From positions 2,520,001 through 2,552,000 of the forward strand of contig NZ_CP080507.1 of NCBI RefSeq assembly GCF_019464535.1: a DNA stretch of 32,000 nucleotides, read 5' to 3'. The DNA is from Horticoccus luteus. Lineage in GTDB: Bacteria; Verrucomicrobiota; Verrucomicrobiia; Opitutales; Opitutaceae. Made by a program: the position numbers and the translations under genes. Below are positions 7,245 through 9,702 of the stretch, piece by piece (positions within the stretch are counted from its first letter, which is position 1; each line of letters begins with the position of its first letter). The notes below the pieces were generated by a model. It was not told where the DNA came from. It was given only the letters and a program-made list of their open reading frames with translations, and ran no database searches.

Positions 7245-7778
7245 TCACTGCTTTTTCTCGCGATACACCTGGATGTCACTGACGACGATTTCCCCCGCCC
7301 AAACATCGTAACGCTTCCCAAAAGTTTCGGTGATCCGAAGTGTGATCTGCACCTGATCCAGGCGGGACAACTCATACACGAGCTCCTGCCAACGAATCGT
7401 TACCGCCTCATTTGGCCGAAGCAGAACGGGCTTCAGATCAGCTTCGGGCACCACGGTTGTCACGCCGTCGTCGTTCGTGTCGAGATCCCAGACCAGCGTG
7501 GTTCTCGTGTAGTTCGGACCGGCTTCGCCTCCCTTGATAAAATCAGCAGTCGGGATTCGGAGCGACTTGGTCCCTTTATTTGTGATCACCACCTTGTATC
7601 TCGCGAGGTAGGCATCTCGCTCTTTCAGTTTGTCGGGTGCGTTCGGATCGAACTCATATTTCAACGCACTGACAGTCGCGGTGGCGTGCATGGCATCGGC
7701 CGCACGCAGACTTTTTGGGAAGAGCCATCCCGTGAGAAACAGGCCAAGAACAATTCGAAGAGGTGTCTTTGTAATCAT
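7245..7778 (-). CDS. Exported hypothetical protein; candidate cognate immunity protein of the upstream Rhs C-terminal domain
   Basis: The internal ATG at 7778 of track ORF 7245..7811 overlaps the upstream stop (ATGA, 7775-7778). It has a Sec-type signal peptide (MITKTPLRIVLGLFLTGWLFPKSLRAADA). G+C is reduced (31/60 at 7561-7620). No family recognised. Confidence 0.65.
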   Translation of the reverse strand: MITKTPLRIVLGLFLTGWLFPKSLRAADAMHATATVSALKYEFDPNAPDKLKERDAYLARYKVVITNKGTKSLRIPTADFIKGGEAGPNYTRTTLVWDLDTNDDGVTTVVPEADLKPVLLRPNEAVTIRWQELVYELSRLDQVQITLRITETFGKRYDVWAGEIVVSDIQVYREKKQ

Positions 7779-9484
7779 GGTTTTTTGCCTCCCGTGTAAC
7801 TCCACATCCACAGATAGTCACCATCGGTTCCCATCCTCCCCGTGTGAACAGGTCCGCCGGGGCGATGCTCGGTTGTGTATTTGATTAAGTCTTTGGCGGC
7901 ATAAATCGTCTGGCCTTGATAGAAGTATCTCCGTGCCCAGGCATTGGGCGTTCCTCCGCCGGCTGCACCTACCTCACACGCGAAGAAGTAAGCCTTCCCG
8001 GACGGATTCAGGTGATTCGCGAACAGCCTGATCGTGCTCGCCGAAACAGCCTTGCCGTTGATGTAAATGCCGTCGCTGTTTCCGTGTCCGAAGAACCCAA
8101 TCGAATCGACCTTGCCAGGGTTGTTTTTGAACCACTCTGCAATCTCTTTTTCGTTCGATACGCCGACGGACAGGGTGCTCCGAGCATTCGCGCCGGCCTC
8201 GAAGTCCTCGTGCGAAGCAGCACTGTTCAGGAAGTCGCCCTTGTCGGATTTATCATAAAAGCCGACCGAAACCTTGGCGTCCTGCTCGTTTGATGGAAGC
8301 TGCGACTCATGCTGTGCGGCGTTGAGAAGATACTGGAACGCTCCACTAACGGCGCCATTGGCAAACTTGCCTCCGCCGAGCGCTGAGGCCGTTCCACCAA
8401 CAACAGCGGATTCAACAGCGCCGGCATATCCGTTGCCGACGAAGGGCGAAGCCCCGGCTGTGAAGAAGCCCGCGTAAAAGCCATGGCGGAACTGACCTCC
8501 TTGAGCTTCAGAAACGCCACCTTCGGCAACGCCGTGCGCAAGCATGCGCTCAAAAAGTTGATCCTTGTCCGGAAACGCCGACCCGATCCCATAGGTCAGC
8601 CCTCCCGCGATGCCTCCAACAACTGCACCGATCGCACCAGCCTTAAACGCGTCGCCGACACTACCGCCGTTGAGCAATGATCCAGCGAAAGCGGATCCGA
8701 ACCCAGCACCCGCCCCCGCGACTACCGCGCCAAAGGCAGTGAGCGCCGGCGCTCCGGCCACACCAGCCATCGCCTGAAGCGCGACCGCCAGTGAAAAATA
8801 TTGGCCGCACATCGCACCGACTGCGACCAATGCTGCGCCAGCGGTCACGACTGCCGCGACCACAACTGCGACGATGACACCGACATCTTTCAGACTGAAG
8901 TAGCCGCTCGGATCGGTGCCACCCAAGGGATTGTTCGAAAGATAGGAGTACCGGTTGTAATCCTGCGAGTCTCCAGCATCCCCTACGAATGGGTCCGCCG
9001 AGAGGAACCGCCCCAGCACGGGGTCATAGACGCGGCCATTCATGTGGATGAGGCCGAGGTCGTCGAGGTGCTCGTGATCGGTGAAGCCGCGGGTGACTTT
9101 GTAATTGTTGGCCGAGGTGACGAGCGCGGTCGCGTAGGTGCTCAGGTCGACATCGAATCGCTTGCCCCATGCGTCGAAGGCGAAGCGCTTCACGACCTGC
9201 CCGAGTTCGTTGGTCACGGCCGTGATCGAACCAAGCCCATCGGTGTGAAAGTATTGTACTTCGTGGGTCGAGTCATTGCGCTCCACGTAAACGGCGACCC
9301 GGCCCGTCGGCGCCATGATGTAGTGGCGGTTCTCCACCAACGGGCTCCCGCCTGTGCCGGTGACCTTCTCGAAAAGGCTGCCGATGTAGAGCGTGGTGCC
9401 GAGGTGACTCACCTGCTTCACGCGTTCGTGCGCCGCGCCGAAGCTGAATTCGCTAACGTTCTCGACGGTCTTGACGACATGCAT
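7775..9484 (-). CDS. RHS repeat-associated core domain protein, N-terminally truncated (core tail + hydrophobic linker + unassigned C-terminal toxin-like domain); start uncertain
   Basis: The frame is open from 9700 to the stop at 7775. Rhs core-tail motifs are present: [57 protein letters not shown]. The first in-frame ATG is at 9484; GTG candidates lie at 9694, 9610, 9547 and 9529. The part of the track ORF above 9700 is the terminator and antisense tRNA, not coding. Confidence 0.7.
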   Translation of the reverse strand: [569 protein letters not shown]

Positions 9485-9702
9485 GGGGGCAATCACGGCG
9501 ATGGTGTCCGGCGCGGTGGAGTCGTCCACGGGTCCTTTTTCAAACACGGTGAATGCTCCCGTCGCGGCGTCGCGCTCGGTCAGCGGCGTGCAGGTGATTT
9601 CCGCCGCCACGCCAAAGCCGTTCGTTGCTTCTTTGAGACGCTCGCCGGGCTTCGACTTGTTGAGCGCCGCTCCGCGCGGCGAGTTGTTTGCCACCGCCCA
9701 AC

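Follow-up and report, generated by a model that had tools for sequence, protein, structure and literature searches.

In enterobacteria (Escherichia coli, Salmonella, Dickeya), orphan rhs-CT/rhsI modules are 5'-truncated fragments of Rhs toxin genes that keep a part of the core, a C-terminal toxin domain (CT) and the cognate immunity gene; the core segment acts as a recombination handle, and the CT and immunity gene are of foreign composition (PMC3150448, PMC3967940). TcdB/TcaC-type polymorphic toxins are described in the survey of Zhang et al. 2012 (PMC3482391, Table 1), which also lists a "Tox-Caspase" class with H,C residues whose C-terminal-most copies are read as toxins, and which assigns DUF637 to CdiA as the pre-toxin domain PT637. 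The DUF4347 effectors Tce1 (PA0256) and Tce2 (PA2372) are Hcp3-bound putative cysteine proteases of the type VI secretion system of Pseudomonas aeruginosa, similar to the cysteine protease domain (CPD) of TcdB; both lack immunity genes and show no toxicity in E. coli, and the toxicity of Tce2 to yeast requires its active site (PMC13323088; PMC8262886). Here we analyse a truncated Rhs-type open reading frame (ORF), K0B96_10485, and the coupled gene K0B96_10480 in a 32-kb window of the genome of the soil bacterium Horticoccus luteus (Opitutaceae, Verrucomicrobiota; NZ_CP080507.1, 2,520,001-2,552,000; GCF_019464535.1). The two annotated genes (639 and 177 aa) are identical to the ORF and the gene following it that an earlier reading of the window from its letters alone (the sequence-only reading) had flagged as a decapitated Rhs cassette. 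The locus is probably a relic, or orphan, of a giant SpvB–TcdB–Rhs toxin, with a toxin half that could no longer be delivered and an immunity gene that would be its selectable function.

The features of the locus, all on the minus strand, are given below in window positions, as are all coordinates in the text; residues q1-q641 are counted from position 9700.

7775..9694, minus strand: relic ORF K0B96_10485, 639 aa from GTG 9694 (NCBI call), stop TGA 7777-7775.
9458..9697, minus strand: segment A (q2-81), a TcdB_toxin_midN-like fragment, by blastp/tblastn to the giant homologue P0134.
9449..9463, minus strand: in-frame internal deletion junction; homology to P0134 breaks off at residue 2149 (end of segment A) and is taken up again at 2970-2973 (segment B).
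8900..9454, minus strand: segment B (q83-267), Rhs core tail, with a TIGR03696 match and the PxxxxDPxG cleavage motif at 8938-8900.
8980..9043, minus strand: MNGRVYDP segment, 5' boundary of the mobile cassette as placed by the drop in G+C content of third codon positions (GC3) and by homologue ORF starts at Met q220.
8321..8899, minus strand: pre-toxin (PT) domain (q268-460), Gly/Ala-rich, 193 aa, two to four hydrophobic helices.
7778..8320, minus strand: CT toxin domain (q461-641), 181 aa, divergent DUF4347 domain with a predicted His/Cys dyad.
7245..7778, minus strand: immunity candidate K0B96_10480, 177 aa; its ATG overlaps the toxin stop as ATGA (7778-7775).
7788..7793, minus strand: GGGAGG, a Shine-Dalgarno-like motif 9 nt upstream of the immunity ATG.
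7157..8409, minus strand: block of DNA-level homology to the metagenomic cassettes L003, L007 and L008 (blastn, ~71-81%).
9701..9725, minus strand: native intrinsic terminator of the tRNA, a 7-bp GC-rich hairpin (9725..9708) and a T-run (terminator scan).
9730..9805, minus strand: tRNA-Ala(GGC) (ARAGORN; Rfam RF00005, 63.3 bits), last element of a conserved ExbB–ExbD–TonB–tRNA-Ala block.

On the minus strand, the frame stays open from 9790 down to its stop at 7775 (671 aa counted from a TTG inside the tRNA), somewhat further than the sequence-only reading had followed it. The first 80 residues and the remainder of the ORF derive from separate parts of a longer protein. Segment A aligns to residues 2068-2149 of P0134 (3,537 aa), inside the TcdB_toxin_midN match of that protein (blastp, 43% identity over 83 aa, 59.7 bits; tblastn places the match at 9697-9458); PF12256 matches the same stretch weakly (E 0.16), and the GC3 of the segment in frame, 0.79, is host-like. 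Segment B matches TIGR03696 (Rhs_assc_core, E 1.7e-16, 60.5 bits against a cut-off of 32.5), while Pfam RHS matches are sub-threshold. Local alignments to more than 100 Rhs proteins start at about q83 (window 9454), which corresponds to position 515-770 in relatives of 1,000-1,090 aa. Relative to P0134 and another giant, P0130 (3,640 aa), about 820-840 aa of the YD-repeat shell are missing at the deletion junction, and a head of about 2,070 codons is missing relative to the giant parent. Because q2-81 matches TcdB_toxin_midN and the homology resumes from q83 onward about 820 aa later, the ORF is a two-piece relic of a Sec-exported SpvB–TcdB–Rhs toxin of about 3,500 aa (Tc "BC" type), whose gene has undergone an internal in-frame deletion as well as decapitation.

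P0130 and P0134 surfaced through an exhaustive profile search with the toxin domain. Both possess an N-terminal signal peptide, SpvB, an integrin-like FG-GAP propeller, TcdB_toxin_midN and RHS repeats, and their C-termini follow the order seen in the window: DPSGYF, a Gly/Ala-rich region, GGKFxNGA..xLFN and the His/Cys domain. K0B96_10485 contains no YD shell of ~800-1,200 aa as in a complete Rhs protein and no match to an N-terminal trafficking domain (signal peptide/SpvB, PAAR and the like), and of the Tc BC-type succession of SpvB, beta-propeller and TcdB_toxin_midN before the RHS shell only the 80-aa midN fragment survives. The hallmark core motifs, the DPSGYF-ending motif that closes at 8900, and the lack of a shell and of trafficking domains are all as the sequence-only reading had them; its core of ~260 aa holds as a length, since about 267 aa precede and include DPSGYF, but only ~185 aa (9454-8900) are core tail, the first ~80 aa being midN. 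The ORF has the properties of an orphan, being 5'-truncated, retaining core homology and lacking detectable initiation signals of its own. No other homologue shares its join of midN and core, and no other piece of the giant is found elsewhere within the window. A full-length rhs partner is likewise absent from the window, and no other H. luteus protein is among the best 120 homologues, which is a weak negative.

Three alternative accounts of the ORF were considered and rejected. Residues q1-75 were first taken as sequence of unknown origin, as they had no match among the 936 Rhs-type relatives (mostly from Opitutaceae and other Verrucomicrobiota) recovered by a full-length homology search with the ORF; they match the TcdB-midN of P0130/P0134. 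A natural mini-architecture shared with P0049/P0039 was dismissed, the alignment of these proteins to q25-82 being a spurious extension. The homologues of 1,000-1,090 aa do not represent the full-length form either: their N-termini begin inside YD repeats, hence they are fragments too.

The 5' end of the relic abuts a conserved chromosomal block. The ExbD–TonB–tRNA-Ala(GGC) arrangement is found in ~25 of the 45 Opitutaceae loci inspected, and the terminator hairpin lies directly before the frame, as reported from the letters alone. Alignments (blastn) to the tRNA loci of relatives pass through the tRNA and hairpin and end at 9694-9704, while the homology of the relic to its giant parent begins at 9697; the truncated gene is therefore butted onto the native tRNA terminator. 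The truncation is real because the record is a single complete contig of 4.32 Mb (4,320,198 bp), which carries both genes, and because the tRNA/terminator homology stops at ~9694-9703; a contig end is ruled out as its cause, where the sequence-only reading had allowed for an assembly artefact. The end of the terminator is the left junction of a variable islet 3' of tRNA-Ala. The sequences downstream of tRNA-Ala in 13 relatives share nothing with the window, so that synteny does not define the far end of the islet, and none of the Opitutaceae loci inspected has an Rhs fragment at this position. No att-like direct repeat of the tRNA end was found in the window. The tRNA terminator sits 14 nt before the start of the toxin ORF, and no sigma70-like promoter is detected in 6800-10000 by a scan that covers the sigma70 consensus only. 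No Shine-Dalgarno motif is detected upstream of the K0B96_10485 start.

The stretch between the Rhs core and the toxin is shared widely. The two regions after DPSGYF measure 193 and 181 aa, close to the ~190 and ~180 aa estimated before, but the presumption that the exchangeable toxin takes up all of the sequence behind DPxG fails here: the 193-aa PT domain aligns at 50-70% identity to more than 100 relatives with differing CTs, among them Tlde1/PF10908, LHH/PF14411 and DUF4157/PF13699. Because q268-460 is common to these relatives, the variable toxin begins at about q461 (window 8320) and not at DPSGYF, and the Gly/Ala-rich stretch is a conserved pre-toxin scaffold rather than toxin. Its hydrophobic segments are strong (Kyte-Doolittle up to 2.1), and it ends in a near-invariant motif, GGGKFANGA(V/I)(S/T)GAFxYL(F/L)N, of which the window version ends in YLLN. 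This short demarcation motif is analogous to the VENN and (Q/E)LYN motifs. Aligned homologues score 26.7 (P0052), 26.5 (P0064) and 24.8 bits (P0111) with PF04830 (DUF637) against a cut-off of 26.6, and P0002/P0021 score weaker still; the window's own PT has no match at E <= 10. On these profile scores the domain resembles DUF637.

The 5' boundary of the mobile cassette lies ahead of the PT domain, inside the tip of the core. Sliding GC3 is ~0.85 over q1-q225 and falls to ~0.6 across q225-240 (~9030-8980); past the break it is 0.58 in the PT domain, 0.66 in the CT and 0.63 in the immunity gene, against 0.78-0.83 in host genes. The G+C counts of the sequence-only reading (28/60 at 7861-7920 and 31/60 at 7561-7620, against 42/60 at 1-60) are exact, and the drop they record is this GC3 drop in the core tip rather than one at the toxin. 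Met q220 of MNGRVYDP, ~48 aa before DPxG, is the exact starting point of more than 35 clusters of homologues 400-450 aa long, and in two loci (L004, L005) stop codons lie 5 codons upstream of this Met and the module stands beside an integrase and a PIN gene. At the DNA level, the homology block to the metagenomic cassettes takes in the end of the PT domain together with the CT and the immunity gene, and runs on for 56-88 nt past the stop of the latter; against L003, the identity of 81% is confined to 8409-7189, a stretch ending 56 nt beyond the immunity stop, and the core is 69% identical, with no match detectable by blastn across most of the PT domain. Because composition, DNA homology and ORF starts agree as three independent signals, modules are exchanged at the MNGRVYDP segment and at the PT-end motif. 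The GC3 break marks the acquisition of a foreign cassette, which circulates among Opitutaceae-like genomes.

Two further arrangements of such modules occur among the relatives. "Mini" modules of 400-450 aa (e.g. P0034, P0042, P0053, P0060) open with MNGRVYDP, continue with the PT domain and one of various CTs, and are followed by a small gene; examples are L004 10001-11815, next to a phage integrase and PIN gene and with stops just upstream, and L005, and one of the CTs is Tlde1/PF10908. They are either expressed genes or merely the mobile unit. Opitutales bacterium ASA1 (L009; AP028972.1 3767664-3789886) has an array of three Rhs fragments of 1,071, 738 and 740 aa, with two or three small ORFs behind each in the classical main-plus-orphans layout; the 1,071-aa protein also begins inside YD repeats.

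The C-terminal domain, which the sequence-only reading could not place in any named family, finds a place by profile comparison. The CT family was gathered from the full-length and the exhaustive profile searches, and its alignment (hhalign) to five bona fide DUF4347 domains has a probability of 98.6% (E 8.5e-16), with the HG and (A/G)C columns aligned. Relatives found with the CT profile (P0132, P0135, P0137, P0138, P0140) pass the Pfam cut-off for DUF4347, and the weaker CT-profile matches include bona fide DUF4347 proteins, e.g. P0140 at 118.9 bits. His539 (codon 8086-8084) and Cys575 (codon 7978-7976), the predicted dyad, are the only invariant catalytic-type residues across seven CTs of 22-67% identity. 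A hydrophobic block followed by His-Gly and a hydrophobic block followed by Ala-Cys form the signature of clan CD peptidases. The AlphaFold2 model of the CT (pLDDT 73.5, pTM 0.76) is an alpha/beta sandwich with the His directly after strand 3 and the Cys directly after strand 4; a Foldseek search of the PDB with this model returns caspases-3/6/7/8 and SAVED-CHAT at weak E values (0.014-0.06), mixed with Rossmann folds, and PDB sequence searches with the CT and DUF4347 profiles return chance matches only. Judged by profile and dyad, the CT is a divergent member of DUF4347 and a relative of the putative cysteine proteases Tce1 and Tce2. The family is rare, with 15 representatives at E <= 1e-10 among 1.84 billion sequences in the exhaustive profile search. 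Scans of metagenome contigs with the 80-aa head and with the CT gave no matches.

Stand-alone versions of the CT exist in P0128 (214 aa) and P0131 (187 aa), with only a hydrophobic, signal-peptide-like leader in front. This suggests that some members of the family are Sec-exported alone, and fits an action outside the cytoplasm.

The downstream gene behaves as a partner of the CT. Its start overlaps the toxin stop and its product carries a Sec-type signal peptide, both as first read: residues 1-26 (7778-7701) have the n/h/c layout MITKTPLR, IVLGLFLTGWLF and PKSLRA, with cleavage before AD, and the Ala at -1 of the cleavage site is conserved in all homologues; the protein has no lipobox. The AlphaFold2 model of the protein is all-beta and of low confidence (pLDDT 51.7). 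Pfam, NCBIfam and PADLOC hold no family for it, and its homologues form only five clusters in a collection of 5.8 billion proteins. Toxin and downstream gene co-vary in 6/6 loci (the window, L003, L007, L006, L091, L092). In L003, an Rhs body of at least 829 aa with YD repeats carries a CT 84% identical and an immunity protein 83% identical to those of the window, with the ATGA overlap kept, and L007 has the same arrangement. L006 has a CT of 41% identity and, once more joined to it by ATGA, a partner of 24% identity across 119 aa (E 1e-13); in L091 and L092, with CTs ~27-31% identical, overlapping signal-peptide ORFs match the hidden Markov model of the family at E 3e-10 and 3e-5. Such co-divergence with the CT is the behaviour expected of a cognate immunity protein, the protection itself being predicted. 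The longer Rhs body of L003, with the same CT and an ATGA-overlapping 177-aa gene, and the co-variation bear out the proposal of an orphan or truncated Rhs-CT/immunity module. The proposal that the pair is not experimentally described stands as well: DUF4347 itself is poorly characterised, and the two proteins match no well-characterised families. A stand-alone immunity homologue, P0125 (L001 8001-8546, in an 8-Mb genome and on 15 contigs), is 42% identical and has a signal peptide; no Rhs or toxin remnant lies within 8 kb of it, which makes it a candidate for an immunity gene left as an orphan in a distant lineage.

The relic departs from the enterobacterial orphans in several respects. It stands isolated behind a tRNA terminator and not downstream of a main rhs gene, its parent was a SpvB–TcdB–Rhs protein of ~3,500 aa rather than a PAAR/VgrG-linked Rhs of ~1,400 aa, and it bears an extra in-frame internal deletion. 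The boundary of its foreign part lies at MNGRVYDP, ~48 aa before DPxG, with the 193-aa PT domain intervening before the toxin. With the TcdB/TcaC-type toxins it is connected through P0130/P0134, which possess their domain set and the same CT; in the window, a midN fragment and the core tail are left, but SpvB, propeller and shell are absent. The CT shares with Tce1 and Tce2 the DUF4347 superfamily, the conserved His...Cys dyad and an alpha/beta fold compared with clan-CD peptidases such as the TcdB CPD. Whereas those are Hcp-loaded stand-alone effectors, Tce2 being antifungal, the CT described here is the C-terminal domain of an Rhs/Tc-type toxin that is always followed by an exported partner, and 36 aa separate its His from its Cys, compared with 54 in Tce1 and 50 in Tce2. 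The predicted caspase-like alpha/beta fold, the H,C dyad and the C-terminal-most position recall the description of the Tox-Caspase class; the immunity family listed for that class, Imm36, and its delivery systems differ. The PT domain, as DUF637/PT637 of CdiA (type V secretion system), is a Gly/Ala-rich hydrophobic region directly before a variable CT, and several of its homologues score at about the PF04830 threshold; in contrast to PT637, it follows an Rhs DPxG cleavage site instead of a CdiA filament, and its own sequence has no PF04830 match.

In intact parents, the Sec-exported BC cocoon, or YD shell, would enclose the CT, and an aspartyl autoprotease would cut at DPSGYF to free PT-CT. 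The released PT-CT would reach the envelope of a rival bacterium, where the CT might cleave a periplasmic or envelope substrate as a His/Cys cysteine protease of clan-CD-like type, while the exported beta-rich partner would bind and block the toxin in the periplasm. The toxin half of H. luteus would be undeliverable, because the shell, the head, the signal peptide and an obvious promoter are missing. The immunity gene would be the likely selected function, shielding its bearer from neighbours that deploy the full-length toxin, as in L003, and the relic fragment could possibly serve as recombination stock.

Several points weigh against this reading of the locus. The Pfam DUF4347 profile (PF14252) scores 20.7 bits on the window CT, below the gathering cut-off of 24.6 (E 3.8e-4). 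The protease activity of the CT, its substrate, its compartment and its binding by the immunity protein are all inferred. An antibacterial role of the DUF4347 superfamily is unproven because Tce1 and Tce2 are non-toxic in E. coli and have no immunity genes. The lack of promoter and Shine-Dalgarno signals is weak evidence; a missing Shine-Dalgarno motif says little because most host genes here are also without one. Finally, an intact toxin ORF of 1.9 kb with a low ratio of nonsynonymous to synonymous substitution rates (dN/dS) is unexpected for a long-dead fragment, and therefore leaves room for residual function or a very recent truncation. For the CT, pairwise dN/dS ranges from 0.05 to 0.09, and for the immunity gene from 0.16 to 0.20; dS is close to saturation or beyond it. 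By three-taxon parsimony, the amino acid changes specific to the window number 15 against 10 and 13 in the CT, and 11 against 10 and 23 in the immunity gene; the window copy has no excess of lineage-specific changes. Either the truncation appears to be recent relative to the divergence, or some selection seems to persist.

The same counts bear on the view that neither gene has any current function, the cassette being dead cargo, a pseudogene remnant that was stranded recently and awaits decay; we regard this as unlikely. The islet around the cassette is a junkyard with a frameshifted insertion sequence (IS), a Y1 transposase and a second toxin-tail remnant, no main rhs gene lies nearby, no other H. 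luteus protein is among the best 120 homologues, and no promoter-like site is seen, all of which such a view would explain. It accords poorly with the immunity gene, whose ORF is intact, with a conserved signal peptide, a strong GGGAGG Shine-Dalgarno motif and no excess of substitutions on the window lineage, and whose stand-alone homologues are kept in other genomes (P0125, on its 15 contigs).

It is rather improbable that the truncated ORF is still active as a toxin–antitoxin (TA)-like addiction or regulatory module, started at GTG 9694 or an internal Met, with the PT domain inserting into the inner membrane, the CT in the periplasm and the exported partner neutralising it. The integrity of the ORF over 1.9 kb, the dN/dS of the CT and its unexceptional number of window-specific substitutions agree with this possibility, as do the many mini versions of 400-450 aa that have a conserved Met start and stand beside integrase/PIN genes; RHS orphan elements are described as TA modules in Salmonella (PMC7043789). 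The deletion is in frame, yet this arises in one case out of three by chance without selection, and at deep divergence (dS > 1) a low dN/dS is mostly the trace of selection on ancestors that were intact. Expression and export are disfavoured by the tRNA terminator 14 nt before the start, with no promoter-like site found, and by the absence of a signal peptide from the toxin ORF, and self-export mediated by the PT domain is speculation.

It is highly improbable that the PT domain is the real, membrane-depolarising toxin, comparable to Tse5-type Rhs and ionophoric CdiA-CTs, and the DUF4347-like CT a releasing or processing peptidase or an anti-eukaryotic effector. In favour of this view, Zhang et al. 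2012 (PMC3482391) state that caspase-like domains of polymorphic toxins mostly serve as releasing peptidases, the toxicity of Tce2 is seen in yeast and not in E. coli, glycine-zipper hydrophobic CTs are known as pore formers, and the PT segments are strongly hydrophobic. Against it, the DUF4347-like domain is the C-terminal-most variable module and co-varies with the downstream gene, the PT domain is conserved before unrelated CTs (Tlde1, LHH, DUF4157) that each have their own downstream genes, and a pore former would be expected to need a membrane-embedded immunity protein, whereas the partner here is soluble and exported.

For the relic of a giant toxin with a retained immunity gene, the architecture of an orphan polymorphic-toxin cassette is textbook, and no current model is overturned. 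The value of the locus lies mainly in a first immunity-like partner for a DUF4347/Tce-type domain and in the clean definition of a mobile cassette. As Tce1 and Tce2 have no known target or immunity and were judged non-antibacterial, a clade that always has a tightly coupled exported partner offers a testable handle, through a periplasmic target and a complex with the inhibitor, on the function of the superfamily. The Tc-like BC giants of Verrucomicrobiota are built to one plan with Rhs and CdiA, DPxG–pre-toxin–CT, and the locus is a clean example of weapon decay, by loss of the head and in-frame deletion of the shell with the immunity gene kept. In a broader and doubtful generalisation, which we advance only tentatively, the cassette might represent an antibacterial, periplasm-acting branch of DUF4347/Tce together with its first dedicated immunity partner (exported, beta-rich and without a family), travelling as one discrete unit and swapped in Verrucomicrobiota between Sec-exported Tc-like BC giants and headless orphans, and the DUF637-like PT domain might be a translocation or recombination module shared by Rhs/Tc toxins and CdiA.

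The junkyard islet extends over ~6 kb from the tRNA to a sugar ABC transporter (6-3605), and holds the relic cassette and the following elements:

5961-6926, minus strand: Y1_Tnp (IS200-like) protein, 321 aa, with an N-terminal domain (E 4.9e-14) and a long C-terminal extension.
4551-5903: IS element with perfect 20-bp inverted repeats (ATCCGGAGTGATAGGTGACA).
3649-3774 and 6988-7113: 126-nt direct repeat, 98% identical, with a partial copy at 6926-6977.
3805-4538, plus strand: putative second cassette remnant, a patch of 39-44% G+C, more severely truncated.

PADLOC finds no defence-system match at the locus, and Rfam matches the tRNA and nothing else, including no family for the 126-nt repeat. 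The transposase of the IS element (HTH_32 and rve/rve_3) is split by a frameshift into ORFs 4768-5304 and 5201-5842. The start of the Y1 transposase gene adjoins repeat copies at 6926-7133, which suggests an arrangement like that of transposases associated with repetitive extragenic palindromes (RAYT-like). Between the 126-nt copies lies the stretch that contains the low-GC remnant together with the IS and the Y1 transposase; one copy is found ~130 nt past the immunity stop, and the other ends 14 nt before the truncated toxin tail. A 20-nt sub-repeat occurs four times at 3756-3791 and 7095-7133. The 126-nt repeat may be a REP-like element tied to the adjacent Y1 transposase, or a recombination scar.

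The patch at 3805-4538 looks like a second toxin-tail/immunity remnant. Its 73-aa ORF (3805-4026) matches the extreme C-termini of six homologues (P0022, P0067, P0080, P0019, P0031, P0079) at 27-40% identity and E values down to 7e-7 in a small database, and its CT type differs from that of the main cassette. An ORF of 168-171 aa with an N-terminal transmembrane helix overlaps or abuts it downstream and is probably the immunity gene of this remnant; neither ORF is matched by Pfam.

On the other side of the tRNA, a mechanically called ORF of 644 aa (11271-13205, minus strand) contains ExbB, with the MotA_ExbB domain confined to residues 522-629. The true ExbB gene probably covers far less of this ORF, unless what lies upstream of the domain is an element of its own or an unannotated one.

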